Shown: one piece after another, positions 3,736 to 53,779 of the stretch
Numbering within the stretch: the stretch's first letter is position 1
Layout: every line of letters starts with the position of its first letter
NCBI RefSeq assembly: GCF_018977255.1
Contig: NW_024705278.1
Location: forward strand, 1-57,067
Reading direction: 5' to 3'
From: Callorhinchus milii
Taxonomy: Eukaryota
Length of the DNA: 57,067 bases
Notes under the pieces: generated by a model
The model's input: the letters and a program-made list of their open reading frames with translations, nothing else
The model's database searches: none
What the model was told of the DNA's origin: nothing
Position numbers and translations under genes: made by a program

Positions 3736-6003
3736 TATTGACGTATACTTGCTTTTGCATACTAGAGTGTTGTGTTTGTTTAGAATTAAAATTGCTTAAC
3801 ACCAAGTCTCGAGTGTTTCTTCCAAGTCCATGCAAAACTGTCTTATTCTTGAGAACTGTATCCTGTGATGAGATCTGAAACTGGAGACATAAAATAACAT
3901 AACACACACTAAGATAATCGGTAAATGTTTAATCAATGATAATCGTGTTATCCTGATTGAGATAACTCTGGATAAACTAAACTAAACTTAATTATCATAA
4001 CCGCTCGCATTAACATAATCACAAGCATCCGCATAAATTACTACGATTATCTCCGTGATTATCATAAATTTATGCATATAATTACAGACATAATTTATAC
4101 ATATTAATACACACTAACATAATTAATGCGATTTGTGCATTTTTAGGAAAATTATAATTTTTTATTATTTTTATCAAAATTTCATAACCCAACACATACA
4201 ACATTGTTAAACGTGACGGGGGATGTGTGTTGTGACCCCCAGCAAAGGGCAGCTGGGGTGCACGCACAGGGAAAACTGGCGACGCGGTCGAGCGTTGGGC
4301 CACCATTTTGAGCGCGCGCGGGAAATTGCGGGGATGCGCTTGGCGCAGAGGGCCGCCATTTTGAGCGCGCGGGAAAAACTTCGGTGGGGCGCTCGCGCGG
4401 GCCGCCACCATTTTGAGTATACACATCGAGCCGCGGGGATGTGGATATGGATATCATCCCTTGACTCTCGTGTTGCGCTCTAACTTGTGTGCGTGCATTG
4501 CGTGTTGTGTGCAATGCTGGCGTGTTGGCGCCCATCGGGGTAACAGCGTAGTGGCACGTGGCTGACTAAAGAGGGGCATTGTCATTGCACCATCATTTGG
4601 GACAGATGCTGGCTGGGTTCTATTCTGGGGCAAATATTTCATCAGTATATGCCTGCCATTGTTGAGTGGGTGATGCACGAGTTGTGGTCACATCGGCCTA
4701 TGGCCGATGGCTGACCTGACAGCCCGGAGGCGAGACACTCCGTGGTATGTCTCAAACTAATGGGCCGTGGGCTCATATGGTTCGGGGAGTCGTGGTTCAG
4801 TTGTGCGGTGGCAGACTGAACCTGGTGTGCCGGGGGCGCGCGGGATTCAGGAGTAGAGGTTCCGTTACGTGGCAGCGAACGGGGTGACCTGGCTAGCATG
4901 GGGCAGGGATTTCCCTTGCGGGTCCTCCAGCGGGAAGGGCCGCGGACTTGTTCTGCTCTGGGTTAGGGCGTTATTGAATGTGTAAGGGAACATTGCCCGT
5001 GGGGAGGTTGATGGGGTCTGGCCTTGCCGAGGGATGAATCTTCCCTTGGCTATAAAGCGTCAGACTATAAGATGCTGGTGTGTGTCCATCGCTGATGGGA
5101 TAGTAAGGGAGGAGCATGGCTGAGTTGTTGCTCGTCCCCGAAATTGCACTAGCCGAGTGTATGGTCAGTGGATGTTGCTGTGGTTGGACGACCACGGTGA
5201 GGGTGAAGGCGGGTTAAATGTTACCGCTGGGGAGCGTGGCTCTCTCCACGCGAGGGTGTGCGGCTGGGGGCTTTGTTGAGAGTGACAGTGGGTATATGCT
5301 GTGTACGTGAGATGTTTGTGCTGGTCCTCAAGGGAGGACTGCTGGTGGGCAAGAGCAGGAATTTTTGTTGTTGTCACGTGTAAATAATATTGTTTTTAAA
5401 ATGTAAATACTGGGGCATCCATCGCGTCTATTTTGGGTATTTATTGGGGTTTTCTTAAGCGGGCCGGATTTACATAATCTCCACTACCCTGGGGCCGGGT
5501 GGCTGTCGTGTACGACATGCGGATGTGCGTTGTTGTGCTGTGCCTCAGGGGGTTGGATTCTCCTTCTCGTCACAGATCTTCGGCGCCTGCCACACTGGGT
5601 GTTACCGGGTGTGCTAACCGGATGTGGACTTGAAGGGGAATTGAGCGCCCGTTCGTCACACTTGCTCTACCAGTTGCTCTCTGACGTTGGACTTGAGCCG
5701 AGCGGATGGAACAGCAACACGGACACGCTCTAAGACACCGCATTCCTGGGTTATGCGCGTCGGCCGTTCTTGCGTGTCGGTTGCCGTTGTTGTGCATTGT
5801 TCCATTCTTAATTCTTGTTGCTTGTTGTGCGGAGGACGGGCCGGTGTTCTGTACCGGATCCTGATCCCTCCCCGTTCGTTACTTGTGTTGTTATAATCTC
5901 CATTGTGTCTGGGGTGATTCCTGATTGTGATGCCTTCGCTCGCATTATTTTGTCCTGTTTTAGCCGAGGACGGCTGGATTTTTCTTTAGGGGGGGGGGGG
6001 TTA

Positions 6004-6466
6004 TGTAATGCGAGCATAAATGGGAAGGCCGGATGTGACGATCTGAGAGGGAGGAGTCAGGGTCACGTGGGTGAGAGGTTATAGGAGGGTGCCCGGAAGA
6101 GATCTGGGCTAGTTGAGGGAGTGAAGAGGCGAGACCACGTTGGGTGGCCGCCGTGCCATCAGCCGCGAGGCTGATAGGGCTTGGCACCCCGCCAGCTAGC
6201 GGTGTGCGGAGAGAGAGCGGAGTGTGCGGGGCGCACAGGGCGTGCGAGGTTGCACGGGGCTAGCAGAGTGGCTAGCAGGACCGTGCGGGTTGCACGGGGC
6301 TAGCGGAGCGTTCGAGGTTGCATGGGCAGCAGAGTGGCTGCAGCGTGTGCGGGGCGCGAGGAGAGACGACGCTGGGCCGAGGAGGAGGCCAGCGGGGTGC
6401 GGAGGAGAAGAATATAAATAAAGGACCAACGGAGAGTGACATCGTGTGAAGGAGTCCTTTATTACA
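6004..6466 (+). repeat. 3' LTR (463 bp)
   Basis: TG...CA termini with TGTAAT/ATTACA inverted repeat, AATAAA near the 3' end, homologous to 33691-34201, 47858-48363 and 51582-52082. Confidence 0.85.
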
Positions 6467-6828
6467 GAAACATGAATTGCTCATACGAATATTCTCTCTC
6501 TCAGAATCGACCGACTGATGTAGCAGACGAAATAGTAATCTTGTTGAACGATTCTAAACCTTGTCGCGGCAATGTTAGTTTTCTCTGTTCAAGGTTTTAT
6601 CAGTGTTTTGCAATGTTTTTACATTTAGTTTACTATTACACTGAATTCTATGGCATAATTAACTATTGTTGTGCTTAAAAATCTATTTATATACAGTTCG
6701 TAGGAGTCTGGAATGGATTAATCGTATTTACATACAATCCAATGGGGAAATTAAGTTCGAGTCACGACCAAATCGGGTTGTGACCAAAGTTATGGAACGA
6801 ATTATTGTCATGATCAGAGGTTCTACTG
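6467..6828. mobile_element. Right half of Tigger/pogo-like MITE split by the LTR insertion
   Basis: Ends in TIR GAGGTTCTACTG followed by TA. The intact element is seen at 14188-14966. Confidence 0.75.
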
Positions 6829-7316
6829 TACTTGAACTAAGTTACCCGGACTATGGAAGGCGAGGACATGTAATGAAGGGGTCTACAAACATTCTATTGG
6901 TGACATGCTGAGATAGTAACAGGCACGCCCTTACTGCCCGCGTTCCATCCAGTGTCTGAGGGGTTGCGCAATCAGAGGGGAGGCTGAGCGCGTCGCTGCC
7001 TCACCTCTCGTCTCTCCCTGTACTTGCAGCGAAGCTCCGCAAATTTGGCGATTTTGACTACAAATAAGTAATTAAGAAATTTTTTTTTTTAATACACGCT
7101 TTTATGAATGAAATGTACTAGTAATGGCAGAACTCCACGACTCCAGGAAGTGGCCCCGAAGCTTGCCATAACGTAAGGGACAGTGGCCAATTACATCCAA
7201 CGTTAGTCGACCGTGGGGACAATTAGACCCAAGCCGAAACATAACGTAAAAAAGATTGTTTAAAATTATTTTATTTAATGATAGAATATAGTATTGTCAT
7301 CAGTATAGCATAAGTA

Positions 7317-7365
7317 CAGTGAGGGAAAACGTATTTGATCCCTGCTGATTTTGTGCGTTTGCCCA
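7317..7365. mobile_element. ~50-bp Tc1 TIR tip fragment (also 15447-15497 and 24244-24294)
   Basis: TA+CAGTGAGGGAAAA.GTATTTGATCCC.TGCTGATTTTGTGCGTTTGCCCA matches the start of the Tc1 element at 29410, with the same upstream flank. Confidence 0.8.
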
Positions 7366-7745
7366 TCGTGGACAATTAGACCCAAGCCGAAACATAACAT
7401 ATGAAAAAGAATGTTTACAAATATATACAGATTTATAAAAAAAAAGTATTCAATTAAGTAGAACCAACGTGACTTTCCCGAAAAAACAAAGAGTATGAAT
7501 CCTTGCAGTCACGAAGCTTCAAATCTAGAATTAAGCAGAACGTTTTGTCTATACTCTATATGTATTTAAAGTTGTGCATTTTGATGTGATGTGACATTTC
7601 TCAAACCCCCACTCCCCTGGTCTCCTTTCTAATAAATCTTTTCTCCTACAACATCAGAGTGCAGCGCCACATTAAATACGCACTACAATGACAATAGTTT
7701 AAAGCGATTTGAAGCGTGTTTTTTTGGGGGGGGGGCAGAGCTTTG

Positions 7746-7942
7746 TGACGTCATATTTGAGGGGGGTCTGACTTTTTGTGACGAGGGGGGTCAAAAATCG
7801 GCCAAAATCACGTGACGTCATTTATGAACGGCCCCAATACGCAAAACTTGAACTCTGACCCCCGTTCTCTGACGTCACCACTAAGCATTACCTCATCGGT
7901 GTGAAACGCCAGGGGGGGCGGTGCGCCTCGTTAGTGACGTCA
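7746..7942. promoter_or_regulatory. Cluster of four perfect CRE palindromes (TGACGTCA) plus an E-box
   Basis: TGACGTCA at 7746, 7813, 7870 and 7935; CACGTG at 7809. The four CREs are retained in all four units. Function is inferred. Confidence 0.45.
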
Positions 7943-8305
7943 TGTCACCCCTGCTTGGTCACCGCCAATATCTGTTCGGTATAGTCCTTATTTGGGCAAA
8001 GCTATGCCCAGTGACTGGCGGCTCATTAACATAATCTAGGATCTAAGCTTTGGTGACTGCAGGAATTGCTCATTGGTTATTTCGGTAAAGAAATTAAATA
8101 AAAAATAAAATTAACATAATATATTCGTTAAAGCCGTCGCGAGTTTGTTTTTTATTGCGACGGGTTCAGCACCCACGCCCCATCATCCCTCGACGCGTGA
8201 CTTTACCGAAAGAGCCAATGAGTGTACAACGAGTTGAGTCATTCCTGCAGTTGACGAAAGCTTCAATTCTCGAATAAGTTATTCAGTTACCCAGCCTGCT
8301 CGTTG

Positions 8306-8406
8306 GGGGCGTGTCTTGTACCCCGGAAGTGAATATTACGTCACATCCTGCTGCCGCCATAACGTAGCGAGGTAACGAGAAGCTGCCGTTGAAATCCGAG
8401 GTGAGA
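8306..8406 (+). promoter_or_regulatory. Putative TATA-less core promoter and non-coding first exon of ZNF copy 1
   Basis: GC/KLF box GGGGCGTGTC 8306, ETS CCGGAAGTG 8323, ATF-type TTACGTCA 8336, partial YY1-like GCCGCCAT 8353, candidate splice donors AG|GTAACG 8372 and AG|GTGAGA 8401. Confidence 0.55.
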
Positions 8407-8735
8407 GATTTTCATCGTGGTGGTTGTTGTGGTTGTTGTTGTAGTTGTTGTTTACCAAGGTAGAGCCTCTCTCTCGTAGGGATGTCAATTGAGTCGCAGC
8501 GAGTATGGGAATCCATGTCCAGGTTGGGACATTACAACGTGGGGCTTAGTCACGCGGGGCCTCGCCTCCTGCCCTCGCCTGAAGGCCTTTGTTTGAATTC
8601 TCTCGCTTCAACTTGATCTGGAAGCTTTCGTGACGGCAGCAGAAATAAAATAAACGAAGAAACAACCAATTTAAGTTAGTTTTTTCATTTATTTTAGTTA
8701 TTTATTCATAATATTTTTTTTCATAATTTTTTTTT

Positions 8736-9640
8736 AGAGATACACACGTAGGCACAGAGAGAGAGATAAAACAGACAGGCATACATAGGCACACAGAGAG
8801 AGACACATAAGCACACAGAGAGAGAGACACACAGAGAGAGAGATAACACAGAGAGAGATAACACAGACAGAGAGATACACACATAGGCACACAGACACAG
8901 AGACACACACATAGGCGCACACATAATCAACAGCTCTGTGACAAGGCCTTAAATAGAGGGAGAAGGCGGCTGAGAGAGAGGGGGGGTAGAGAAATGAGCA
9001 TGGCAATGAGAGATTTGGAGCTTTCGTGACTGCAGGAAATATTACAACACGAGGGCACTTTCGGTTTTTATTTTATGTAACTAGGCCAAGCCCACTTGAG
9101 CTGCTGTACCGCTCTTATGATTTGAAGCTTTCGTGAGTGCAGGAATCCATACTCTTTGTTTTTTTCGGTAAAGTCACGTAGGAAGAAAAAATAGGTAATA
9201 GCATACGACGTTTCCTTTGCAACACGAGCAATCACCATCAGGTACAAATGAATGAGAAAGCAAAGCTTTCAATCGAAATTTAAAGCAAAGCTTGTAAACT
9301 TGAACTATACTCTTTGGTTTTTTCGGTCAAGTTATGTAGGTATAAAATTAAATAAACTTATAACTACAATGCAATACAACACAGAGAGTCGGCTAAGATA
9401 AGTCAACTCCCCACCTGGTTTATTAACGTTCTTCCAAAGATTGATACATTTGAGAGAGAGAACTAAACACAGACACGGAGACACACAGACACATACACAC
9501 AAGCAGAGAGAGATAACACAGACACACAGAGAGAGACACACAGAAGCAGAGAGATAACACGAGAGACAGAGAGAGAGACACACACAGGCACACAGAGAGA
9601 AAGCACAGACAGAGACACACACATAGGCACACACAGAAAC
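8736..9640. repeat. Two compound (CA)/(GA) low-complexity tracts (~8736-8925, ~9466-9640), each followed by a duplicated ~250-bp segment
   Basis: Visible ACACAGAGAGAGATAACACA-type repeats. Segment ~8944-9200 is repeated at ~9655-9900. Confidence 0.85.
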
Positions 9641-10689
9641 AACACCTGTGTTGAGGCCTTAAATAGAGAGAGAGGGGGGGGGTAGAAAAATGAGCATGGC
9701 AATGAGAGATTTGGAGCTTTCGTGACTGCAGGAAATACTACAACACGAGGACACTTTCGGTTTTTATTTTATGTAACCAGGCCAAGCCCGCTTGAGCTGC
9801 TATACCGCTCTTATGATTTGAAGCTTTCGTGAGTGCAGGAATCCATATTCTTTGATTCTTTCGGTAGAGTCACGTAGGTAGAAAATTTAATAAATCACGA
9901 CGTTTTGGGCGCAATACAAGCGTCCGCTCTTGTTTTCCGAAGCGACCTGCCCGCACAACAAAGGTGGGCTTTGTCAACGTGTGGAAATGACTATCGGTCA
10001 AAGGCTCTAAACGCGTGCTGATATTCACTTTTAAATGTGGAGGGGATCTGGAGGAAAATCCACGCCACCACAGAGAGAGAGGGAGACACGCAAACTCAGC
10101 CGTGTTGATTTCATCCTGAATTATTTGGTGGAGTGAGGAAGCATTGAAAACGTTTTGGTTTAGCCATGTTTGTTTTTTTGTAGTACACAGTTAGCCTGAT
10201 AACTTTAATCTAAATTGTCCTATGGTTGTTTTTGTTGACTTGCATCCCACTGGGATTTTCTGCATAAAGCGTTGAAATGCGGTGTTTTTTCTGCAGTTTT
10301 TTCCTGGAATTTTCTGTTGCGTGTAGTCACTTTAAGATGTTTCTTGTTCACGTTTTTGTTAGTTGCGTTTGCCCCCGAGTCAAGAGCCACATGGCTCACG
10401 GGGTTATCTATATATAAAAGGGAAATTTGTGAATGTTTAGCATACTTTCCGACATGCAACAAACTTGAAATTTGGCATGTAGGTACCTTCCAGACTGTAC
10501 ACAATGCAAAAAGTATGAAAATTGACTTTTGCATTTTTCTGGGGGGGGGGGTGGGTGGGGCGCAATAATGGATATATTTTGCACGGCAAGTGAGCGGTGA
10601 CCTCACGTCTGTGATGTCACCCGCATGCGGCAGCGTCACGTTGTGTGCATTCTGACGTTACGCATCCCCCACCCCCATCCTCCGCGTAG

Positions 10690-10735
10690 GCCGTGGATTC
10701 ATTCAAGACAAGAATCCAAGTCTCGGCGAAGCCAG
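10690..10735 (+). other. Candidate small internal 5'UTR exon (also 19537-19583, 27910-27956, 56431-56477)
   Basis: Upstream CTGAC branch-like motif, C-rich tract, TAG| acceptor and |GTAGTA donor conserved in all four units. No transcript evidence. Confidence 0.35.
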
Positions 10736-11811
10736 GTAGTAAAGCTAGTACCTAATAAATGAAACTGAAACATTAATACTGAGCAGATGAAGGTGTGTGG
10801 CCAGGCATGGTTCTGGACACGCCACCACCTATTTAACGCGGCAGTGTGTGGCAGTGTCAAGTTTGTGTTTGCAGTAAAGTCTATTAACTCTTGAACACGG
10901 AGGATATATGAAAACAATGGTTTATGTTTTTTGTTTTCATCTGGAACTCTTTATGAGAATGGAAGCAGTCAGGAAGTTGACACAGCACACATACAGCTGA
11001 CGTTAGATCTGTTCATCCCAGCATTCAAGGAAATCGGAGCCTGGCTTCACACCTCTAATTTTCAATTGAACATGAATTTATGCATAACACAAGTAGTATT
11101 ATTTTCAACACCCTTTGCTATGTCAGCTGAATTTAGCTCTTATGAATATTCATTTTGTAGCCAGACAGCCAAAATTGTGTGCTTGGAGTTTTGGGTTAAC
11201 ATTCATTTTGAAGATACGAGGGCTTCCAGGAATGTTTATGACCATTTGCCCTCTCATAGTGCGCCATAACAGCCCGTGTGATGAATTTCGGTAACTTTTT
11301 AACTCTATCATGAATATATGAATACATATAGACATGTTAGTCATGTGTGACTGTGTTTATATATACTCTTTGGTTCTTTCGGTAAAGTCACATAGGTAGA
11401 AATAAAATAAGTAATATTTTTAAAAACTCTTTTAAAAACACGCTTTAATGAAATGTACTAGTAATGAAAGAACTCCACGACTCCAGGAAGTGGCCCCGAG
11501 GCTTGCCATAACGTAAGCGACCGTGGTCAATTACAGCCAACGTCAGTTTACCGTGGACAATTAGACCCAAGCCGAAACATAACATGTAAAAATATTGTTT
11601 AAAAGAAAATGTTAATGATAGAATATAGTATCGTCATCAGTATGGCATAAGTATACTAAGTTTGCAGTCGATACCACATTGGGAAGTGGGTTAAAATGTA
11701 GTTAGAAGATTTCAGGATACAACAATGACAAAAATGACAACAACAGACAGAGCGAGTTAAATGAAAGCGTGTATTAAAATAAATCACAGCAGACATCTCA
11801 GATATCGCGAT

Positions 11812-11934
11812 TTCACCCGAAGACGAACGCTTGTGTTGCATTCGAAACATCGTCATTTATGTTATTTTTACCTACGTGACTTTACCGAAAGAACCATAGA
11901 GTATGTATTCATGCAGTCATGAAAGCTTCAAATC
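11812..11934 (+). mobile_element. Degenerate Penelope-like pLTR fragment with decayed hammerhead core
   Basis: TTCAC-CCGAAGA-CGAACGC..GCATTC-GAAACATCGT followed by CCTACGTGACTTTACCGAAAGAACC...GAAAGCTTCAAATC, homologous to the 16586-16850 element. Confidence 0.6.
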
Positions 11935-12056
11935 AAGATTGTGTACATATATATATGCGTATATTCATTCTTCTGTGCCTCGATACTGACTTGTAGATGT
12001 TATTTTCTGTCTGCAGCTGTCGCTTCCTCTGACGCTTCCTCTGCAGAATTGGTCTG

Positions 12057-13568
12057 ATGGAGCACAGGCAGTCAGCGCGGCTCGGTACGGCATGGCAACA
12101 ATGGGACCAGCGTGCATACAGCACGGATCGGACTGGAAGTTTGACACGGCACCAGAAAAAACACACGGGAGAGAAACCCTTCAAGTGCAATCTGTGTGAG
12201 ATGGCGTTTGCACATTCATCAAATCTTCAAAGACACCAAAGAACACACACGGGAGAGAAACCCTTCAAGTGCACTCTGTGTGAGATGGCGTTTGCACATT
12301 CATCAACTCTTCAAAGACACCAAAGAACACACACGGGAGAGAAACCCTTCAAGTGCAGTGTGTGTGGGAAGGCATTTTCACAGTCACAACATCTTGCAAA
12401 ACACCAGAGAACACACACAGGAGAGAAACCCTTCAAGTGCAGTGTGTGTGGGAAGGCATTTTCACAGTCATCTTATCTTGCCAAACACCAGAGAACACAC
12501 ACAGGAGAGAAACCCTTCAAGTGCAGTGTGTGTGGGAAGGCATTTTCACAGTCACAACATCTTGCAAAACACCAGAGAACACACACAGGAGAGAAACCCT
12601 TCAAGTGCAGTGTGCGTGGGAAGGCATTTTCACAGTCATCTGATCTTGCAAAACACCAGAGAACACACACAGGAGAGAAACCCTTCAAGTGCAGTGTGTG
12701 TGGGAAGGCATTTTCACAGTCATCTGATCTTGCAATACACCAGAGAACACACACAGGAGAGAAACCCTTGAAGTGCAGTGTGTGTCGGAAGGCATTTTCA
12801 CAGTCACATAATCTTGCACGACACCAGAGAACACACACAGGAGAGAAACCCTTCAAGTGCAGTGTGTGTGGGAAGGCATTTTCACAGTGGTATCTTGCAA
12901 AACACCATAGAACACACACAAGAGAGAAACCCTTCAAGTGCAGTGTGTGTGGGAAGGCATTTTCAAAGTCACGTGATCTTGCAACACACCATAGAACACA
13001 CACAGAGAAACCCTTCAAGTGCAGTGTGTGTGGGAAGGCATTTTCACAGTCGCCTATTCTTGCAAAACACCAGAGAACACACACAGGAGAGAAACCCTTC
13101 AGGTGCACTCTGTGCGGGAAGGCGTTTGCACGGTCACAACATCTTCAAGAACACCAGAGAACACAGAATCATCAGAAAATCCACAAGGAGTGGAGTCTGA
13201 AATCAGCTTGTGAAAGTCAAAGTTCCGTAAGGAGCCCATCCCTCATGAAACAAGTACCGGAAGAAAATCCCAGCTTGGGCACTTTTAAAGGTATCAAGGT
13301 GGAATTTGAAGAGTTGATTGTGAAATGTGAAGAGGTGATTGTGAAATGTGAAGAGGTGACGGTGAAGAGCGAAGAAGTGAAGGTAAAATGTGAAGATGAA
13401 GATTCGACTCCAAAATGGGACCTTCACATCGATGGAGGCAACGTGAAGCAGGAGGGGAATTCTGACTGTGAGGCAGAGCGAGGCAACTCACAGCAGTTTG
13501 TGGAAGTGGAGGTGTGGGTGGACTTCCTAGACAATACAAAGTCAAATGGAGATCCGTTAGATGTGTAA
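12057..13568 (+). CDS. Tandem C2H2 zinc-finger protein, 503 aa, 12 fingers (finger 6 C->R, finger 9 one residue short, finger 12 atypical), acidic C-terminal tail with 6 psi-K-x-E motifs
   Basis: Uninterrupted ORF with repeated CxxC-x12-H-x3-H and TGEKP linkers (84-bp repeats). Candidate splice acceptors CTGCAG| at 12016 and 12046 upstream; AATAAA downstream. Extra upstream coding exons cannot be excluded. Confidence 0.93.
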
Positions 13569-13617: not shown

Positions 13618-13623
13618 AATAAA
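13618..13623 (+). terminator. Candidate polyadenylation signal AATAAA (copy 2: 22483-22488; copy 3 has AATGAA)
   Basis: About 50 bp after the stop codon. Confidence 0.45.
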
Positions 13624-13720: not shown

Positions 13721-13998
13721 GAGCCTCAGTGATTCACACTGAACCCTATTGCAGCCTTCATCTGGCTCTGTGAGCCTCAGTGATTCACACTGAAGCCTGT
13801 GGGAACCTCAGTCTGGATCTGTGAGCCTCAGTGATTCACACTGAAGCCTATGGGAGCCTTAGTCTGGCTCTGTGAGCCTCAGTGATTCACACTGAAGCCT
13901 ATTGGAGCCTTAGTCTGGCCCTGTGAGCCTCAGTTATTAACGCTGAAGCCTATGGGAGCCTGAGTCTGGCTTTGTGAGCCTCAGTAATTAACACTGAA
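13721..13998. repeat. 51-bp minisatellite, 5 full units plus 1 partial
   Basis: GAGCCTCAGTGATTCACACTGAAGCCTATGGGAGCCTTAGTCTGGCTCTGT-type units at 13721, 13772, 13823, 13874, 13925 and 13976. Confidence 0.9.
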
Positions 13999-20902: not shown

Positions 20903-22433
20903 ATGGAGCACAGGCAGTCAGCGCGGCTCGGTACGGCATGGCAACAATGGGACCAGCGTGCATACAGCACGGATCGGACTGGAAGTTTGACATGGCACCA
21001 GAAAAAACACACGGGAGAGAAACCCTTCAAGTGCAATCTGTGTGAGATGGCGTTTGCACATTCATCAAATCTTCAAAGACACCAAGAACACACACGGGAG
21101 AGAAACCCTTCAAGTGCACTCTGTGTGAGATGGCGTTTGCACATTCATCAACTCTTCAAAGACACCAAAGAACACACACGGGAGAGAAACCCTTCAAGTG
21201 CAGTGTGTGTGGGAAGGCATTTTCACAGTCACAACATCTTGCAAAACACCAGAGAACACACACAGGAGAGAAACCCTTCAAGTGCAGTGTGTGTGGGAAG
21301 GCATTTTCACAGTCATCTTATCTTGCCAAACACCAGAGAACACACACAGGAGAGAAACCCTTCAAGTGCAGTGTGTGTGGGAAGGCATTTTCACAGTCAC
21401 AACATCTTGCAAAACACCAGAGAACACACACAGGAGAGAAACCCTTCAAGTGCAGTGTGCGTGGGAAGGCATTTTCACAGTCATCTGATCTTCCAAAACA
21501 CCAGAGAACACACACAGGAGAGAAACCCTTCAAGTGCAGTGTGTGTGGGAAGGCATTTTCACAGTCATCTGATCTTGCAATACACCAGAGAACACACACA
21601 GGAGAGAAACCCTTGAAGTGCAGTGTGTGTCGGAAGGCATTTTCACAGTCACATAATCTTGCACGACACCAGAGAACACACACAGGAGAGAAACCCTTCA
21701 AGTGCAGTGTGTGTGGGAAGGCATTTTCACAGTGGTATCTTGCAAAACACCATAGAACACACACAGAGAGAAACCCTTCAAGTGCAGTGTGTGTGGGAAG
21801 GCATTTTCAAAGTCACGTGATCTTGCAACACACCATAGAACACACACAGAGAAACCCTTCAAGTGCAGTGTGTGTGGGAAGGCATTTTCACAGTCGCCTA
21901 TTCTTGCAAAACACCAGAGAACACACATAGGAGAGAAACCCTTCAGGTGCACTCTGTGCGGGAAGGCGTTTGCACGGTCACAACATCTTCAAGAACACCA
22001 GAGAACACAGAATCATCAGAAAATCCACAAGGAGTGGAGTCTGAAATCAGCTTGTGAAAGTCAAAGTTCCGTAAGGAGCCCATCCCTCATGAAACAAGTA
22101 CCGGAAGAAAATCCCAGCTTGGGCACTTTTAAAGGTATCAAGGTGGAATTTGAAGAGGTGATTGTGAAATGTGAAGAGGTGATTGTGAAATGTGAAGAGG
22201 TGATTGTGAAATGTGAAGAGGTGACGGTGAAGAGCGAAGAAGTGAAGGTAAAATGTGAAGATGAAGATTCGACTCCAAAATGGGACCTTCACATCGATGG
22301 AGGCAACGTGAAGCAGGAGGGGAATTCTGACTGTGAGGCAGAGCGAGGCAACTCACAGCAGTTTGTGGAAGTGGAGGTGTGGGTGGACTTCCTAGACAAT
22401 ACAAAGTCAAATGGAGATCCGTTAGATGTGTAA
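20903..22433 (+). pseudogene. ZNF paralog 2 (12 fingers, near-identical to copy 1) with two 1-bp deletions; pseudogene or sequencing error
   Basis: Length 1531 = 1512 + 21 (extra VIVKCEE unit) - 2. One A is missing at ~21084 and one at ~21765. Confidence 0.75.
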
Positions 22434-22585: not shown

Positions 22586-22812
22586 GAGCCTCAGTGATTC
22601 ACACTGAACCCTATTGCAGCCTTCATCTGGCTCTGTGAGCCTCAGTGATTCACACTGAAGCCTGTGGGAACCTCAGTCTGGATCTGTGAGCCTCAGTGAT
22701 TCACACTGAAGCCTATGGGAGCCTTAGTCTGGCTCTGTGAGCCTCAGTGATTCACACTGAAGCCTATTGGAGCCTTAGTCTGGCTTTGTGAGCCTCAGTA
22801 ATTAACACTGAA
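22586..22812. repeat. 51-bp minisatellite, 4 full units plus 1 partial
   Basis: Units at 22586, 22637, 22688, 22739 and 22790. Confidence 0.9.
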
Positions 22813-29409: not shown

Positions 29410-30770
29410 CAGTGAGGGAAAAAGTATTTGATCCTCTGCTGATTTTGTGCGTTTGCCCACTGACAAAGAAATGATCAGTCTATAATTTAATGGTAGGTTT
29501 ATTTGAACACTGGGAGACAGAATAACAACAACAAAAAACACATGTCAAAAATGTTATCAATTGATTTGGATTTTAATGAGGGAAATAATTAGTTGACCCC
29601 TCTGCAAAACATGACTTAGTATTTGGTGGCAAAACCCTTGTTGGCAATCACAGAGGTCAGACGTTTCTTGTAGTTGGCCATCAGGTTTGCACACATCTCA
29701 GGAGGGATTTTTTCCCACACCTCTTTGCAGATCTTTTCCAAGTCATAAAGGTTTCGAGGCTGACGTTTGGCAACTCGAACCTTCAGGTCCCTCCACAGAT
29801 TTTCTATGGGATTAAGGTCTGGAGACTGGCTAGGCCACTCTCGGACCTTAATGTGCTTCTTCTTGAGGCACTCCTTTGTTGCCTTGGCCGTGTGTTTTGG
29901 GTCATTGTCATGCTGGAATACCCATCCACGACCCATTTTCAATGCCCTGGCTGAGGGAAGGAGGTTCTCACCCAAGATTTGACGGTACATGGCCCCGTCC
30001 ATCGTCCATTTGATGCGGTGAAGTTGTCCTGTCCCCTTAGAAGAAAAACACCCCCAAAGCATAATGTTTCCACCTCCATGTTTGACGGTGGGGATGGTGT
30101 TCTTGGGGTCATAGGCAGCATTCCTCCTCCTCCAAACACGGCGAGTTGAGTTGATACCAAAGAGCTCCATTTTGGTCTCATCTGACCACAACACTTTCGC
30201 CCACTTGTCCCCTGAATCATTCAGATGTTCATTGGCCAACTTCAGACGGGCATGTATATGTGCTTTCTTGAGCAGGGGGACCTTGCGGGCGCTACAGGAT
30301 TTCAGTCCTTCACGGCGTAGTGTGTTACCAACTGTTTCACCAAACTGCTTGGCGATGGTCTTGTAGCCAATTCCAGCCTTGTGTAGGTCTACAATCTTGT
30401 CCCTGACATCCTTGGAGAGCTCTTTGGTCTTGGCCATGGTGAAGAGTTTGGAATCTGATTGATTGCTTGCTTCTGTGAACAGGTGTCTTTTATACAGGTA
30501 ACGAGCTGAGATTAGGAGCTCACTCTTAAAGGGAGTGCTCCTAATCTCAGATTGTTACCTGTATTAAAGACACTTGGGAGCCAGAAATATTTCTGATTGA
30601 GGGGGGTCAAATACGTATTTCCCTCATTAACATGCAAATCAATTTATAACATTTTTGACATGCGTTTTTCTGAATTTTGTTGTTATTCTGTCTCTCCCTG
30701 TTCAAATAAACCTACCATTAAAATTATTGACTGATCATTTCTTTGCCAGTGGGCAAACATACAAAATCAG
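29410..30770 (-). mobile_element. Tc1-family DNA transposon with long (~200 bp) TIRs; right TIR tip deleted
   Basis: Starts TA+CAGTGAGGG. ~30600-30770 is the reverse complement of ~29440-29600. The last ~28 bp of that TIR and ~95 bp of flank are missing relative to unit 1. Confidence 0.9.
29616..30437 (-). CDS. Tc1 transposase (DD34E), 273 aa, in-frame deletion in the N-terminal DNA-binding region
   Basis: [10 protein letters not shown] start, [22 protein letters not shown] and [11 protein letters not shown] motifs; 34 residues between the second D and E; shorter than the typical ~340 aa. Confidence 0.9.
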
Positions 30771-31070: not shown

Positions 31071-32733
<1,663 letters not shown>

Positions 32734-32884: not shown

Positions 32885-33060
32885 GAGCCTCAGTGATTCA
32901 CACTAAACCCTATTGGAGCCTTCGTCTGACTCTGTGAGCCTCAGTGATTCACACTGAAGCCTATGGGAGCCTTAGTCTGGCTCTGTGAGCCTCAGTGATT
33001 AACACTGAAGCCTATGGGAGCCTGAGTCTGGCTTTGTGAGCCTCGGTAATTAACACTGAA
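32885..33060. repeat. 51-bp minisatellite, 3 full units plus 1 partial
   Basis: Units at 32885, 32936, 32987 and 33038. Confidence 0.9.
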
Positions 33061-33253: not shown

Positions 33254-33690
33254 CAGTAGAACCTCTGGTCACGAACGCTTCTGACCACGACCAAATTGGG
33301 TTCCATCCAAAACATTGACATTTTTGAATCTGGTCACGAACACATACTCGGGTGGCGATCAAACACGGCCGCGGCCGATTTCCCCTTGCGCGACATTTTT
33401 GTTGTTGAATTACACAAAGCGTAACAGTTATGTATATAACTTTTGCTATATAAAATTCCTAGTAAATATACATTTTGTGAGTGTAGTCATACCCCTCCCC
33501 CTCATTCAAGCCATAATTTAGAGAGCGACAGCGCTGAGTACGTAAATTGCTAACATAAGAACCCGTTAATCTCTTCTCGCATCATTCATACGATGATGCG
33601 GTGAAGTAAACATTCATACGATATTACGGTGAATGCTTCCAAAAACAATACTGTACCCAAATATTACTGTTAACTTATTTTCAATAGAAA
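33254..33690. mobile_element. Left half of Tigger/pogo-like MITE, interrupted by the LTR element
   Basis: TA+CAGTAGAACCTC TIR; ends at target site GAAA 33687-33690. Confidence 0.75.
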
Positions 33691-35451
33691 TGTAATGCGA
33701 GCGTAAATGGGAAGGCCGGATGTGACGATCCGAGAGGGAGGAGTCAGGGTCACGTGGGTGAGAGGTTATAGGAGGGAGCCCGGAAGAGATATGGGCAGTC
33801 GAGGGAGTGAAGAGGCGAGACCACGTTGGGTGGCCGCCGTGCCATCAGCCGCGAGGCTGATAGGGCTTGGCACCCCGCCAGCTAGCGGTGTGCGGAGAGA
33901 GAGCGGAGTGTGCGGGGCGCACAGGGCGTGCGAGGTTGCACGGGGCTAATAGAGTGGCTAGCGGGACCTTGCGGGTAGCACGGGGCTAGCGGAGGGCTAG
34001 CGGAGCATGCGAGGTTGCACGGGCAGCAGAGTGGCTGCAGAGTGTGCGGGAGCACACGGAGCAGCGGGGTGGCTGCAGAGTGCGCGGGGCGCGAGGAGAG
34101 ACGACGCTGGGCCGAGGAGGAGGCAAGCGGGGTGCGCAGGAGAAGAATATAAATAAAGGACCAACGAAGAGTGACATCGTGTGAAGGAGGCCTTTATGAC
34201 ATTGGAGTCAGAAGTGGACTTTTTCAAGGCTAAATAACATCGAGGAAGAGGGCCGAGAACTTGAAAAAGTGTAACCCACTTGTTACGTCTTTCGACGACG
34301 AAGAAACGGCCGCCGGCGCACGTCCTCCAGCGGCCACGTGGTGGTCCAACTTGAATCGCTGCGGGCCGTTCTGCCTGGTTTTTTCACCCTGGTGGCGCCG
34401 GCGACGAGGCAGGATCGGCCACGCGGCAGGCCTGAAAGCGGTGAGCCTTCGAGTGGGGCTGAGCCGTCCGCCATTGGGGCCTGGCCCACGCTTCCCGTCC
34501 TCTCCGACACGCGGCAGGGCGCCGCCATCTTGGGTGTGGTCGGGGAGGATAGGTGGGAAGCCACCATCTTGTCGTCGCCGCGGCGGGAAGCCACCACCAT
34601 CTTCAATATTGCGGCGGAGAGGTGGCCGTGCGCTGCCATCTTGGAGGCGCCGTGTGGTGTGCAGCCTGCTGCTGAGCTGCTGTTTTGCGGGGAGGAGCCG
34701 CGAGGAGAGGACGCCGACGCTGCTGCTGCTGGGCGGGAGCACTCCCGTCCTGGCTCGTGTACGAGACACCGGAGCAGTCAAGGGAGGACGCTGCGCTCAC
34801 CGTTCGAGTTTTGCGAGGCGTTTCAAGTTAACATCCTGCCGTCCTCTGCTCGCTGCAGCCCGGGCGAGTCGTAACGATATGCACCCGGCCCTAACACACA
34901 CCTCACCCATCTAGTGTGTGCCGGGGTGCGATTGTTGTCATGTCTTGAGCGTACAGAGCGCGGTTCGGGCTGTGTGTGTGTGTTAACGATGGACGCGCTA
35001 TCTGCTTGTTTGCTCAGTGTCAAATAGTGTGTGTGCGTTGTGGCGTGGAGTTGTTATCTTGATGGCGAAGTTAATTATTAATTCGGTTGTGTCGTGTATC
35101 CCGCGCTGTACCATCCCGTGGGTTGCCGTGTGCGACATGGTTAATTGAAAAAAAAAAATTTGGGTGTTGTTGCTGCATGGTACGACTGAGTTAATGGTGT
35201 GTCTGCCTGCAGCTCTGCTTGCTATTGTGCATGAATTTACGCTTGTGATCGCGATATGCTGACTGCATGTGCTGTATACACTGTTCTGTACGGATACGGA
35301 GTGCTGTGCATTGGTTGTGTGTACCTGTTAGGAAATTGTTCAAAATTCGGGGGGGCCCAAAAATTTGGTCGTATGAGTGTTCATGCACACGAGATTGCGT
35401 GTGTGTTAAAGCAAATTGCGAGTGTTGAGAGATGGGGCCGTAAATTGCCGC
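33691..35451 (+). mobile_element. LTR element copy 2: 5' LTR 33691-34201, PBS 34203-34217, internal region truncated by the gap
   Basis: TGTAAT...ATGACA followed by TGGAGTCAGAAGTGG, which resembles the complement of a tRNA-Leu 3' end (TGGTGTCAGAAGTGGGAT). Confidence 0.85.
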
Positions 35452-35481
35452 NNNNNNNNNNNNNNNNNNNNNNNNNNNNNN
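35452..35481. other. Assembly gap (30 N)
   Basis: Run of N. Confidence 1.
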
Positions 35482-38400
35482 TTTACTTCACTAGCGGTCG
35501 GTTTTTGCTAATTTGTCTAGGACTAAAATCCCCTAATGGGATAACCCGTAAGCCCCCTTCATATAATCTTGCTGGCCTTAGAAGGGCTAGATTTAGTGCA
35601 GGACGGAACGCGGTAAAGTCAGTTGCCTGAAGTGACATCGCACTCGTCCAATCGACTCCACCTCGAGTTAAGTGGGTGGATGGCGCCCTAATATAAGCGT
35701 CGTCGATCGATCGGCTATTATTAACGAGCCCCCGTGACTGGGTTCGGCGAGCTCCGCTGTAGCGTCGGGATACACCTTCGTTTCATCTAACATGATCCCT
35801 TCGCGGTGCATAGCACGTTTTAACTGACAATTTCATGTATCAAATAATCCTACACGGAGCCTCTTGCATAATGCGGCTCCGAATGGACCACTTAACCTAC
35901 ACAAGGACCACGCGGACCCTTTAGATTGTTGCGGAAAGCGACTCAGTGACATGATCCCATATCAGGGTTTACCATTGTGGATGTTGGTTATGGTCGTGGA
36001 AGAGCAAACGCGAAAAGAGCGACCGCCCCAGACCTCGTAATTTCCTAAAAACACTATGCAATCAGCTTGCCTGCGTCTGATTGGAAACACCTACTTTACA
36101 TCCCTCCGGTCCGCCAAAGTGCGTGACGTAGAAGGCGTGATGTGTATGGACGGTCGCATCGCGTGATCGTTAGCAGCGGATGTGTCCCTGGTCAATTTCA
36201 TTCGTCAGGGTACCTCATTCATGTACGGTTTACTTAAAGACGCCTCCAGACTCTGGCAACTTAACAGGACTATAGGTTGTGGATCGTCGATTAGCCGCAA
36301 TGAGGACCTGGACCTTTATCGGAATTCAACTCATAGGGTCTCCAGACCTAGTGTAACGTGACCTAAACGTCCGCAATTGAATATAGAGGGTAAACAGATG
36401 TCCTGCGGTAACGGGGTATCAGCCGAAAGCCAGGAGGTACGAATTTGTGGACATCGTGCCCTACGTCTAAAGTTTCAATGTGGTCTCTGTGTGTGAGGCT
36501 TCTCATTCCGTGACTTGACTCAACCGGACTATGGTGGTCTGTTCGCGTCGGTCTCGACAGGAACGTTCGCATTGTATCTTGACGTATCCTCGTAGGGAAC
36601 GTAACAGTTCTTGCAGAATCGATGGGGTACAGCCACCGGGACCATAAGTAGTAGGCGGACGGAGGAGGCCCGAAGTCGATCTTCGCATAAGGTCTTCCGG
36701 TTTTGGGCTAAATGAATGAGATGCTGGATATCCCTCTAGGTGAAAGTCAGGTACGCGGGTTGGTCACCAGCCGGTCCCGCCGACTCGACCCGCACTCCTC
36801 CAAAGCTGGTATCGGCGGAAACTTATCCCGGGAGTGTGGCCTCACACATATACAACGATAAGCCAATAGGCCTTAATACGATTGTGGCATCTGGCAGACA
36901 GCCGCCTAGATAGTGCACAGGTTATTACGGCTTGGCCTCGCTTCGGATATTCATGCGCAGGTGAGGCATCCAGTTTGGCTTGTGATACGAATAACTCGAT
37001 AGATTGAACGTGAGAAAGTATCCAGACGTGCTTTACGTCCAAGGAACAGCAGGTGGATTCGGTACCGGGAGTCCACACCAGGCAGATGTTGTATCGAATG
37101 ACAACTGAATACAGTAAAGGTAATAGTAAGTTGGGGCTGAATGCAATGCATAGCACCTGTGGTATGCGCAACATAGCGTACTTATCTTGCAAGAATGAGA
37201 ATCGCTAAACTAATTAGTGGGATCTCACTGGAGACAGGACCGAGCTGGCTATGGACATGGGCTTGGTACGGCAGTAAGTGAGGCAACGAGGTGTGAAGAA
37301 GCGGGTTTCCTAACTGGTGTCTATACCGGAACCATGTCGTGCCAGAGAACATGCAAGGAGGTAGACGTACGGCGGAACCAAAATGCTAGGCTAGCTTACA
37401 ACTTGGACTGATGGATGCGAGGCGCAGAATGACACCCGAATAAAGATCATATGAGACGTAGATGGACCATTTGTACGGGGTATTGCAACCTGTAGAGGAG
37501 CTGCATACTTACTCGCACCTGGTCCGACAGTCGCGGCATCAATTATACAATCAGATGCGTATTATAACGGCCCCGGGAGGAGAATAGTGAACAATCGCTG
37601 GTACTCCAGCTATCATAAATGCGAAACTCTGAAAGGTGCCCATGCAGGAATAGGTGTTTTCGGGACGCCATCTGCGTTTAAGAGAGCTGGAACGCAATGA
37701 ATATGCTTCTAACTACTGGTATGATGATGAGTACCGAGTGTTAAAGCAGGATTGATTGCAGCCGCAATACTTACCGGTTAGACAAATAGTTAGGCAGGGG
37801 GTAGTCTACAGGTGAATTCTCCAGTCATAGGGCTTTGGTAAACCATTTGTTTAGGTGCTTTCTCACGTTGTGTAGGTGGTCGTGACTCCAAAAGTTAGGC
37901 GTTGATGATTCCTATCATGTATTTCAACAAGGCTGGCTGCCGGTCTCATGCTCTGTCGTAACAACGGCCTTTTAAGGATAAACGTGTGGGGGTATCCGAC
38001 AATTAAGACACCTCATTAGCATATTTGGCATGATGCGTGTTTTAACCTTTTGAAAGGTTGCAACTGTTAATCATCTGACACCATGGGCGACTCAAACATT
38101 CGCTCGACCTGGGGATTCCTACGAGTGTGTTGCAGGGGGGCTGGGAGGATGGAGGCGGCAATATTCGACTACTGTTTAAAGGGCGACGAAATCCAGAGGG
38201 CGTGACGCTTAAGTCGTCTCTGGTATCATCCTTAAATGCTTCCAAGCTCCGAACTGGTCAGATCGACCATCGGGGGTGTGACGAATTTACCCGATCTGTT
38301 ACAGAAGACATAAGTGATACAGGTTCGGTATGATCCCTAACGGAGATTCCACACTAATCCTTTCGGGTGAAAAAACGTCGATGTTTCCGTGATACCAGTC

Positions 38401-41400
38401 AATTAAGACAGTACCGCGACGGCGACCGATTATAATCAAGTTAAGAAGGGGAACTGTGAATCGGAACCCTTTTTGGTCGGTAATGTGCAGCGGTATCTCT
38501 TACGTCGTAGGCACCGCCACGCCACTGAGGTATAGTATCCAGAGGCATGTAGCCTCCCGCGTCAAGGCAAATTCTAGGGCTATGTCCTCCATAGTCTGTA
38601 AGATGCTTCCGGTCGAGCGTCGCGTAACGAAAATATGGGTACCATAATTTTTGGCAAACCGGTCTGTATGTATTGGTCTAGCTTACTTAGTTAGTGTCCC
38701 GGGTAGAGGTATGCCTAATAATCCGGCTTCTTACACATAGGAACATCCATGAACCGTGATGTGTCACGCTTCCCGGAACCCCTTAAGGTGATAGTGGCAG
38801 AATCCTTGGGGATCAGCTGGGGGTAAAGAACGACACGGCTCAGCTAAGAACAATGCCTGCTAGCGAGATTTCATACTATCCGGGGCCAGATCCAAGCAAC
38901 TTAAGCATCGCCAGTAAAAGGTTAGAGAAATAATTAAGCTATGCGCGCGAATGGGGTGGGTGGACCGACGGAAGCCCCTCTAGATGACTACATCCTCCAC
39001 GATACGAGGAGAGTAAAATGAGAAAGTTGCTTGAGTTAGACGCGTAGGGGGGAATAGTGTGTTAGAACCTTGCCTATCCTAGTCGGAGTCACTGCGCGAC
39101 GATTACGTGTCACGTAAAAACTCCGGTTTTGGGATAGGGGTCTATGCTGACCCCGATTCCGAGTAACGCTAGACACCGAAAGGTCGACCGACGGTCAGTG
39201 GGAAAAGTAGGTACATGCCCATAACTTCATCCCTAAATGCCTGAAACGATATCAATAGCGAAAAATGCTACAAATTAGGCTGTTTGCTATGCATAAAATT
39301 ATTAAAGTGAATTATGAACTCGATTTTTTTACGAGTACGCAAGGTTGCAGGATCTGCTTCACGTTATAGCTCCAGGTCACCTTTATGCAAGCTCCCCGTT
39401 CGACGGGATGGTTCTGGGAATTCTTAGATTGCGTTAGTTTATGCCGATTGGCGCCCATCATCAAAACAGCTCGTTGATTTGAATCAGAATCAAAGATCAT
39501 CTCAGAGCCGCGCTTAGAAAAAGTTAACGCCTACCAGTCCTCTATCCAGTATGGCTACCCCTAACGACCGCGGTTCACCAGCGCTCCAAGCAATTTGCAT
39601 ATCTACTCCGTACTAATGGGAGAGTAACCGACGGTCACACAACATGGCCCAGGTTTGATGGACAACTGTTAATGCTTTGACGTCAATCTGAAAATGTTCT
39701 ACGTTTCTTACGACATGACACATCCAGGGGCCGTAATACTTAGTCGCCTAGCGCGAACAATATCTCTGGTCTTTATTTTGATTCTGATACAACCGTGGAC
39801 CGATGCTGTCACGGCGATAGCAGCAGGTAAGTTCTTTATGATGTTAGCTCCGCGTTGGGAAACAGCGGCTACAGTGCAATAACACTGCCACATACGGATA
39901 AACAAGTTACGCCTCGCCCGCCGTATACCACCGTCACTAAAAGGCAAGTGATGTCCATCTGAAATCTGTAATCTATCGACGAGCGTACTTACAACACATG
40001 ATAATGACATCCAAAAATGCGAGTACCATACGGGGGCACGCGCGCAATAACGTCGTCTTACCTACGTATGTGCTGAAAACGAGAACCTCGGTCAAGTAGC
40101 TAATGCAGCGGTTAAGTAGCTGTTGACGCATTCGGATTACCATCTCCCAGTATGAGTCGCATTTCTGAGTGTTTGGGACGCACTCACCGTCTATGGATAG
40201 TTTCAAATGAAGTTATGAGCTTTGCTGCCAGGTCGTCAGGCGTGTGGTTAGCCAACGAAATATGCAGACTTGGTTGAAATCTCTTATGCTAACATTACGA
40301 AAAATTTGTCCGAGCGAAATCAACCAAGCGGATAGCCATACATATAGACCTACAGCTCTCCGTTAGATGTAATCTTATGTACGAACTCCGCGAGTGACGC
40401 CTACTGCATTTGCTGTCTTAGGCCCTTATAACACTGCAGACAATAGCCTGACCCGGCTGCATACAATTTCGTTTTGTCATGGTAACACGCACCGCACCTC
40501 TTTGCATGCGAGGGAATATGCGCCAGCTTACAATGAATTTTCATATATGTTATTCCCGTAATAGCTCATGGGGGGCCAAGTTGTAAGTATTAACAACGGA
40601 GGTCATCTAATTGTCGTAACCCTATGCAACGCAGGACGCAACGTATCCAACCGCCGTTGTACTGACTACACAGAAGAAGAGCTCACAAGTCTATAGGCCC
40701 AACCCGCTGAGGGGAACTTGACCAAATAGTAGGACCGGTGGATTACCCTGTCAATAGTTTGCATGTTTCCCTGCTACGTCGAACCTTCCGAATCTTTACC
40801 GCCCGTAAAAATGAGGACTAAGGTATCGTGTTCGGCTCATAATCAAAACACGGATTGCAAATTCTGCATACCAAAACAATATACGTGAGCACTTCAATGT
40901 TGACACAGTAGGCAGCTAAGGGGCCTCACGGTTTAGTTGTTCTTCAGCCTAGGCCTTAACCACACTTGGCCAGAATGACGATCTCCATGGCATGTTGAAT
41001 ACATCTGTGTTGCAGCATATAGCTTCTGGATCGAGGACCCGGCCCGTTAGAAGTTTTCGCTGCTCCGGCAAAGACTGATATCAGTCATGTATAAAAGGTA
41101 TACATGCGCTTCAGAACCTATAACCATTCTACATCGCAAGTTACATACACCCGGGCCCTGTTTAAACCACAGCAGTGTTCACGGTCCTGTTACACATTGT
41201 ATGTTCCTAGAGAACCCGATAAGTCTTGACCTAAAACCCCTTCGCCTATTCAATTCCAGAACCAGTATCTACCAACTACAAGGTTGTAATTCCAGCTAGA
41301 TTCATCGAGAAGGCTGAGCAAGCTCGCCGGTTAACTCCGTAGAGCCGAGTCTCTCTATTGTAGTGTCATCTTTGATCATTCGGCCTTTCACGGTCTGTAC

Positions 41401-47225: not shown

Positions 47226-47419
47226 CGCGATGGATGGGAGCCAGTGACATGGGGTGAGGTCTGTGGCTGATGGAGGCACCGGGGGCGTGGCCTCACCGAA
47301 GGGGGGGTGTGTCTGACGCCCCCCCTCAGTGAGGCAGATGTGATAGCTGCCGACCCTGGTGCTTTTTCATTGCAGTTTTCATGACGAGATCAGCGAGCCT
47401 ACGTATCTTTATACACATA

Positions 47420-52445: not shown

Positions 52446-53779
52446 TACTTGAACTAAGTTACCCGGACTATGGAAGGCGAGGACATGTAATGAAGGGGTC
52501 TACAAACATTCTATTGGTGACATGCTGAGATAGTAACAGGCACGCCCTTACTGCCCGCGTTCCATCCAGTGTCTGAGGGGTTGCGCAATCAGAGGGGAGG
52601 CTGAGCGCGTCGCTGCCTCACCTCTCGTCTCTCCCTGTACTTGCAGCGAAGCTCCGCAAATTTGGCGATTTTGACTACAAATAAGTAATTAAGAAAAAAC
52701 TTTTTTTAATACACGCTTTTATGAATGAAATGTACTAGTAATGGCAGAACTCCACGACTCCAGGAAGTGGCCCCGAAGCTTGCCATAACGTAAGGGACAG
52801 TGGCCAATTACATCCAACGTCAGTCGACCGTGGGGACAATTAGACCCAAGCCGTAACATAACATATGAAAAAGAATGTTTACAAATATATACACATTTAT
52901 AAAAAAAGTATTTAATTAAGTAGAACCAACGTGACTTTCCCGAAAAAAACAAAGAGTATGAATCCTTGCAGTCACGAAAGCTTCAAATCTAGAATTAAGC
53001 AGAACGTTTTGTCTATACTCTATATGTATTTAAAGTTGTGCATTTTGATGTGATGTGACATTTCTCAAACCCCGCCCCCCTGGTCTCCTTTCTAATAAAT
53101 CTTTTCTCCTACAACATCAGAGTGCAGCGCCACATTAAATACGCACTACAATGACAATAGTTTAAAGCGATTTGAAGCGTGTTTTATATATTTGGGGGGG
53201 GGGGCAGAGCTTTGTGACGTCATATTTGAGGGGGTCTGACTTTGTGACGCTTTGTGACGAGGGGGGGAGGGGGGTCAAAAATCGGCCAAAATAACGTGAC
53301 GTCATTTATGGACGGCCCCAATACGCAAAACTGGAACTCTGACCCCCGTTCTCTGACGTCACCACTAAGCATTACCTCATCGGTGTGAAACGCCAGGGGG
53401 GGCGGTGCGCCTCGCTAGTGACGTCATGTCACCCCTGCTTGGTCACCGCCAATATCTGTTCCGGTATAGTCCTTATTTGGGCAAAGCTATGCCCAGTGAC
53501 TGGCGGCTCATTAACATAATCTAGGATCTAAGCTTTGGTGACTGCAGGAATTGCTCATTGGTTATTTCGGTAAAGAAATAAAATAAAATTAACATAATAT
53601 ATTCGTTAAAGCCGTCGCGAGTTTGTTTTTTATTGCGACGGGTTCAGCACCCACGCCCCATCATCCCTCGACGCGTGACTTTACCGAAAGAGCCAATGAG
53701 TGTACAACGAGTCATTCCTGCAGTTGACGAAAGCTTCAATTCTCGAATAAGTTATTCAGTTACCCAGCCCCGCTCGTTG

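Follow-up and report, generated by a model that had tools for sequence, protein, structure and literature searches.

A tandem cluster of zinc-finger genes

The window, the whole stretch of 57,067 nucleotides analysed here, contained tandem units of ~8-10 kb. The elements of a unit were a candidate promoter, short candidate upstream exons, a single coding exon, a candidate poly(A) signal, and a 51-bp repeat. The ORF of copy 1 (12057-13568, plus strand) was a single, intact exon of 503 aa. It encoded a short family leader, in which the first finger is degenerate, followed by 12 C2H2 units in tandem and ~130 aa of tail. The product was a tandem C2H2 (Kruppel-type) protein with TGEKP linkers (PF00096, 12 stretches, E=3.9e-74); one of its C2H2 units carried a Cys-to-Arg change and two had one-codon deletions. 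In the full-length AlphaFold2 model, the fingers mostly had pLDDT values of 70-94, and residues 376-503 were below or near 50. The family leader (window 12057-12149) was itself conserved and contained the atypical first finger, whose two cysteines were retained in most relatives and lost in all three window copies.

Copy 2 (20903-22433, plus strand) was ~99.7% identical to copy 1 and had one extra 21-bp unit, and copy 3 (31071-32733, plus strand) was an older paralog with different fingers and an array shorter by one unit than that of copy 1. Single-base deletions were located in the finger array of copy 2 near 21083 and 21764, both shortening short A runs, and its frame from the ATG stopped at 237 aa. 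Copy 3 had lost single bases at two places towards the end of the finger array and stopped at 309 aa from the ATG. As a consequence, the tails of both copies were out of frame as assembled. The four deletions may be sequencing errors.

Two candidate splice acceptors preceded the copy 1 ORF (12015-12056, plus strand), with putative exon starts at 12017 and 12047. Matching junctions were crossed by the lamprey gene models P0007 and P0014 (12017) and P0008, P0011, and P0012 (12047). For the 12017 acceptor, the frame is interrupted by an in-frame TGA (12030-12032). The frame via the 12047 acceptor stays open, so that an uncatalogued upstream coding exon is possible; upstream extensions in lamprey gene models were short or unrelated. 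Two candidate upstream exons with AG/GT boundaries (9781-9828 and 9921-9963, together 9781-9963, plus strand) matched parts of the lamprey models P0005, P0007, and P0014 (53-83% aa identity over 11-17 residues) and are likely 5' UTR. Candidate upstream exon A was duplicated inside each unit (9077-9127 and 9773-9828), with AC/AG-rich repeats between the two. A candidate promoter and first exon (7746-8405, plus strand) contained TGACGTCA at four sites, CCGGAAGT at one, and a donor-like GAG/GTGAG, and this segment occurred in four units of the cluster. Downstream of the ORF, an AATAAA (13618-13623, plus strand) is a candidate poly(A) signal; its counterpart in copy 3 was AATGAA.

The fourth unit (window 52085-57067) had promoter-like motifs and upstream exons, and the window ended before the expected ZNF exon. 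Behind each gene was a 51-bp tandem repeat (13721-13998, 5.5 copies; 22586-22812, 4.5 copies; 32885-33060, 3.5 copies), so that a non-coding repeat next to the tail differs in copy number as well. A Tc1-like transposon (29439-30770, minus strand) with inverted repeats of ~170 bp (87% alike) and an open 312-codon transposase frame (29616-30554) was inserted just upstream of the copy 3 coding exon. An LTR-like element of about 4.2 kb (47857-52082, with 33690-34201 and 6003-6466), with TG...CA ends of 460-510 bp and an apparent 4-bp target duplication, occupied the same site in three units and was absent at 14620 and 23432. The window also contained a gap of 30 N bases (35452-35481). The segment 33061-35451 was 98% identical to 47226-49598, which may represent an assembly overlap, and in the 11.7 kb of 35482-47225, nothing matched a ZNF and the open frames did not exceed 141 aa.

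Though the window is filed under a Callorhinchus milii assembly, sequence comparisons point to lamprey DNA. All named relatives of the window proteins were from lampreys (53-83% identity), and non-coding upstream pieces of the window also matched lamprey models. Sequencing runs whose majority alleles matched lamprey proteins had 15-65 contigs each at >=99% identity to the stretch, including one 118-base contig with no difference from it. Gene transfer is a far less likely source than contamination of an assembly or an error in filing, and the protein finding on the tail is unchanged by the origin of the DNA.

The C-terminal tail and its family

The acidic C-terminal module (13185-13568, plus strand) comprised 127 aa, including 29 D/E, 15 K/R, and, in copy 1, seven aromatic residues; it was found in lamprey ZNFs only and was predicted to be disordered. 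Its conserved start near 13185 was ~35 codons upstream of the start given in the preliminary description of this locus. Modelling with AlphaFold2 from the tail alignment gave a mean pLDDT of 35, and a two-copy complex prediction for residues 405-503, in a run that did not use the alignment, had a score of 0.02.

Within the tail, a 21-bp (7-aa) repeat array (13293-13396, plus strand) with the unit V-K-x-E-E-V-y contained five [VIL]KxE motifs and was followed by an acidic run after the last unit. The repeats themselves spanned 13298-13396 in copy 1, 22143-22261 in copy 2, and 32482-32561 in copy 3. Strict [VIL]KxE counts per tail were 6, 7, and 5, respectively, reproducing the psi-K-x-E counts first reported for this repeat. 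In 20,000 shuffles of the copy 1 tail, the mean was 0.41 motifs and the maximum was 4, a comparison that overstates the surprise because one motif is copied with every repeat unit. Two further elements were a lone VKQE SUMO-consensus site with an acidic flank (13443-13454, plus strand; K464 and E466 in the alignment) and a tail core of ~11-12 residues with an alternating hydrophobic pattern (residues 480-491; 13494-13529, plus strand). The SUMO acceptor consensus and the SIM patterns were taken from PMC3395311, and all six matches to [IVL]KxE were located in predicted disordered sequence (pLDDT below 50).

Word-indexed searches with the tail matched 17 of 99 candidates in one case and 33 of 8000 scored in a second, and a search from a divergent paralog matched 13 of 38, all belonging to Petromyzon, Lampetra, or Lethenteron. 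When 1.84 billion representatives were searched with a profile, 12 matches were obtained, of which nine had E<=1e-10 and were all from lampreys. Three proteins (P0041-P0043, E 1e-6 to 4e-4) were dropped as unrelated repeat proteins of an unnamed record, an alga, and a snail. No hagfish or jawed-vertebrate protein matched the tail in the word-indexed and profile searches, and no cyprinid protein did so in the tail searches. A total of 43 database relatives were gathered, some being isoforms or re-annotations of one locus, and with close paralogs masked by clustering at 90%; 23 of them began at the family leader Met, and all contained C2H2 fingers except the finger-less partial models. By sequence similarity, the tail was thus shown to mark a C2H2 ZNF family restricted to lampreys in the databases searched, in line with the earlier suggestion of a lineage-specific family. 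An exact look-up in the protein collection gave no match for the three window proteins.

The fingers of this family were highly variable, as the preliminary description had proposed: 126 distinct fingerprints at -1/2/3/6 were found in 146 fingers, and the entropy at -1, +3, and +6 was 3.1-3.2 bits. Over 17 window units, which are not independent, the pN/pS ratio was 1.97 at contact codons compared to 0.81 at other codons. In these sequence measures, the finger variability resembles that of KRAB-ZFP fingers.

Lamprey genomes contained 509 to 1886 zinc-finger ORFs in a previous survey (Wells et al. 2023, PMC10547256 supplement 2), the main text of which never names lampreys. In the literature searched, subscription papers aside, we found no description of an effector domain for lamprey ZNF ORFs, nor, in the part on lamprey ZNF effectors or KRAB-independent SUMO silencing, any published account of the tail. 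The tail was unmentioned in the available text of PMC10547256, PMC11603059, PMC11788884, PMC10380595, and 10.64898/2025.12.15.694513. It is a real lamprey-specific ZNF module and apparently one that has so far been undescribed. RefSeq models with isoforms exist for lamprey family members. Part of the tail was present in 20 of 24 database rows, in 11 studies; 14 were guessed to be RNA, and none of those listed was on record as RNA. The guessed-RNA runs contained 43-60% of tail words and had 270-433 contigs each on the stretch, and neither a splice joint nor a poly(A) end was seen among the rows listed from sequencing runs on the tail stretch.

The copy 1 ORF had been described as lacking KRAB, SCAN, BTB, and SET domains, and wider searches gave the same picture. 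These four were absent among the best 25 of the 39 Pfam families matched by the ORF, no Pfam cut-off was reached by any of the 49 frames of at least 30 aa on the plus strand of 6400-12060, and the Pfam scan of 11 relatives, mostly picked for long N-termini, returned finger families alone. SCAN, BTB, SET, and ZAD had no match at cut-off in the ORF, the upstream frames, or the 11 relatives. KRAB membership was rejected, as no KRAB match was found in the ORF, the 49 upstream frames, the 17 tails, or the 11 relatives. The Pfam check proposed earlier for the tail returned no family at E<=1 for the last 135 aa of copy 1; the 17 tails gave ten scattered families (best E 0.028), and the tail had no match among PDB sequences at E<=10. 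In the Atlas, the best cluster for the tail was an unnamed chordate cluster (0.84), which is a lead only.

Using EH1 (Groucho) and LxCxE (Rb) as motif patterns, we found no match in the copy 1 tail, and two VxCxE near-matches. HP1 PxVxL and Groucho WRPW (consensus from 10.1101/2022.08.26.505496) had no match in this tail either. The stretch VEVEVWVD and a terminal PLDV, both pointed out in the preliminary description, were present in copies 1 and 2, with copy 3 ending in LLDV instead. The suggestion that PLDV is a CtBP-type motif was rejected, since its sequence departs from the pattern for CtBP binding, Px[DENS][LM]x or in refined form PL[DN]Lx (10.1101/2022.08.26.505496), Px[DENS][LM]x was found in 0/36 tails, and PLDV occurred in 0/43 relatives. 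The proposed reading of VEVEVWVD as a SIM was likewise rejected for a canonical SIM: four aliphatic-only patterns (V/I-x-V/I-V/I or SIMa/b/r; PMC3395311) had no match in the tail, and matches in the core appeared only when W or F was allowed.

Conservation within the tail

The tail had been reported to be almost invariant between paralogs whose fingers diverge. Copies 1 and 2 do not bear this out, as they differed by 0-1.1% in every region (2/1030 in the fingers, 1/387 in the tail) and by ~0.2-0.3% in the intron, similar to the fingers and tail. Being equally alike in fingers, tail, and intron, they represent either a duplication that is very recent or one created by the assembly. Tail identity between these two copies was rejected as evidence of selection, because the same near-identity was found throughout both. 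The contrast between tail and fingers was seen only against copy 3, which differed from copy 1 by 1.9% (7/366) in the tail, 5.6% at the intron end, 6.6% in the 3' UTR, and 9.2% in the fingers (tail vs flanks of 5.6-6.6%, Fisher P=0.004). Six of the seven tail changes were non-synonymous and one was synonymous, and this pair therefore gives no sign of purifying selection. The low tail divergence between copies 1 and 3 may be attributed to gene conversion.

For conservation analysis, we aligned 30 tails with an intact core, leaving out 11 truncated, frameshifted, fused, or finger-less models; four later matches stand outside this alignment. The core had 1.17 parsimony changes per column compared to 2.94 elsewhere, and the best 10-column window had a permutation P of 0.007, figures that are an upper bound on conservation because possession of the core was the criterion for choosing the tails, and similarity to it was the means of finding them. 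In divergent paralogs, 10-12 of the 12 core residues were retained at 50-73% identity elsewhere. The best-conserved parts of the tail, both located outside the array, were the core and the lysine of one VKQE: K464 of the lone site was retained in 30/30 aligned tails, E466 in 29/29, and K398 in 29/30, which bears out the emphasis placed earlier on SUMO-consensus lysines. The fixed site near residue 398 was found in 27/36 proteins and was lost in the window copies, which have MKQV instead of MKQE. In the Lampetra models P0015, P0016, and P0034, the frame shifted just before the core and a different tail was present at the end.

Variants listed from four runs (40/119 rows) comprised 20 rows over 403 nt of coding tail and 20 rows over 152 nt of 3' UTR (P=0.004), the UTR being ~2.6 times denser. 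Among the listed tail variants, 7/20 were synonymous (P=0.08; 40/119 rows listed), a weak synonymous excess. The proportion was 4/7 in the distal half (P=0.03, with the split chosen after the data were viewed), and both listed changes within or beside the core were synonymous.

These data bear on whether the tail has any specific function. Its similarity could merely reflect that genes in tandem clusters have recently duplicated and undergone gene conversion, as might be expected from the near-identity of copies 1 and 2, the mostly non-synonymous changes between the tails of copies 1 and 3, and the loss of the core in some relatives (it was present in 35/43 database relatives, and 8/43 had no intact core, three of these being frameshifted just ahead of it). 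We regard a functionless tail as highly improbable, given motif-specific conservation across three genera, in paralogs only ~50-60% identical elsewhere, and the denser variants listed in the UTR.

As the best-conserved element, the core might instead bind a non-SUMO partner, such as the coiled coil of a TIF1-family protein, in the manner of KRAB, with the SUMO motifs being secondary. The spacing E-V-x-V-x-F in the core matches the KRAB residues Asp8, Val9, Ile11, and Phe13, which contact KAP1 (PMC9753469), and residues 455-503 had a KRAB cluster as their best named match in the Atlas (0.78, 39/256 features shared). However, a third of shuffled proteins score higher in the Atlas, and none of the 17 tails had a KRAB match even at E<=10. 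Moreover, KRAB Trp18 and Leu21 are unmatched, and the protein ends 13 residues past F490, so that equivalents of Tyr29, Val32, and Met33 cannot exist. With the rest of KRAB absent, the spacing match and the Atlas cluster are a lead only, and we consider this kind of docking unlikely.

Array size ranged from one to six motifs over the 35 scored arrays, with a mode of four, and one divergent paralog had no array. In its strong form, the preliminary description proposed that the number of 21-bp units tunes the strength of repression. This range of unit number would suit such tuning, as would the fact that unit insertions and deletions are whole codons and that the unit K (84/95) and E (90/95) are less variable than its x and y residues, in an anchored count that includes shared ancestry. 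However, slippage of a 21-bp repeat yields the same variation without selection, and the best-conserved elements stand outside the array. The module is also retained when the array is reduced: P0039, with a single array motif, has lost neither the core nor either of the two fixed sites, and P0013 has lost several array lysines with its core at 12/12. Judging from P0039, the array looks like a later expansion. Tuning by unit number is thus very unlikely, and the varying repeat count of the tail is likely incidental.

A putative SUMO-linked effector and its relation to known systems

We judge the chances to be about even that the tail is the effector of this family, a lamprey-specific C-terminal counterpart of KRAB or FiNZ that would act in SUMO-linked repression. 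The fast-changing fingers would select the DNA target, and Ubc9 would attach SUMO to acidic-flanked lysines, namely K464 and those of the array. SUMO and the conserved core strand would then recruit repressive chromatin partners, with transposons as the putative targets. The 21-bp array is probably an expansion of a single ancestral acceptor motif, prone to slippage, that would have added redundant sites. We infer all four of these steps, i.e., SUMOylation, the core partner, repression, and the transposon targets.

In human screens, SUMO motifs mattered in at least 149 of the 166 repression domains carrying them and were present in 12.3% of non-repressing tiles (10.1101/2022.08.26.505496); a Drosophila screen saw no enrichment of these motifs in repression domains (PMC9890238). 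Against the effector reading, the window copies lack the first fixed site and two of the three are frameshifted. The tail might also be an acidic activation or bifunctional domain with the SUMO sites as a damper, as it is predicted to be disordered, is net acidic, and contains aromatic residues, and aromatic residues or leucine among acidic residues define activation domains (10.1101/2022.08.26.505496). This is quite unlikely, because the core is a valine-rich strand in fixed register, which is more than composition, and because deletion of SUMO motifs rarely lowered human activation and mattered in most repression domains (10.1101/2022.08.26.505496).

If SUMO-based repression holds true, the tail would support repeated convergence of lineage-specific ZNF families on SUMO-linked silencing. 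In a broader and more doubtful version, lampreys independently evolved a KRAB-like C-terminal module of SUMO acceptors and a docking strand that silences transposons without TRIM28, and jawless vertebrates would then have arrived at this defence along a path of their own. The 127-aa module, with its invariant lysine and 11-residue core, also provides a profile for family annotation as well as test reagents.

The tail family resembles the KRAB and FiNZ families in design and is a member of neither. Like the FiNZ-ZNF family of cyprinid fish, it is lineage-restricted and expanded, with tandem C2H2 fingers and a short conserved acidic sequence unlike known domains (PMC10547256). In both families the fingers are variable and the mechanism of the domain is open (PMC10547256), and for FiNZ the cofactors of KRAB-less ZNF expansions were stated to be an open question (PMC10547256). 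FiNZ is a 28-aa, N-terminal sequence in its own exon, found in cyprinids only, with knockdown evidence for TE repression (PMC10547256). In contrast, the tail module is ~125 aa, C-terminal, encoded in the finger exon, and lamprey-only, and has a tandem SUMO-consensus array. The C-terminal module accordingly lacks the 28-aa N-terminal exon that defines cyprinid FiNZ-ZNFs, and the two are set apart by position, length, and lineage.

KRAB-ZFPs and the tail family share clustered tandem duplicates, hypervariable contacts, and a conserved module that is disordered alone (PMC9753469, PMC10380595), and both have a short E/D-V-x-V/I-x-F spacing (PMC9753469). Unlike KRAB, the tail has no KRAB Pfam match, is located at the opposite end of the protein, and has no counterpart of the helical part of KRAB-A; KRAB-ZFPs have also been described as sarcopterygian (PMC9753469, PMC10380595). 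SUMO belongs to the KAP1 route to SETDB1 in the KRAB-ZFP system (PMC9753469, PMC10380595), and the candidate SUMO sites would be on the ZNF itself in the tail family, not on the cofactor. The SUMO-site repression domains of human factors such as SP3 and MGA (IKEE) resemble the tail in having psi-K-x-E in a disordered acidic part of a DNA-binding protein (10.1101/2022.08.26.505496). Compared to these domains, the tail has 3-7 strict motifs, several of them from a minisatellite, together with a conserved hydrophobic core, and its motif set is common to the whole expanded family.
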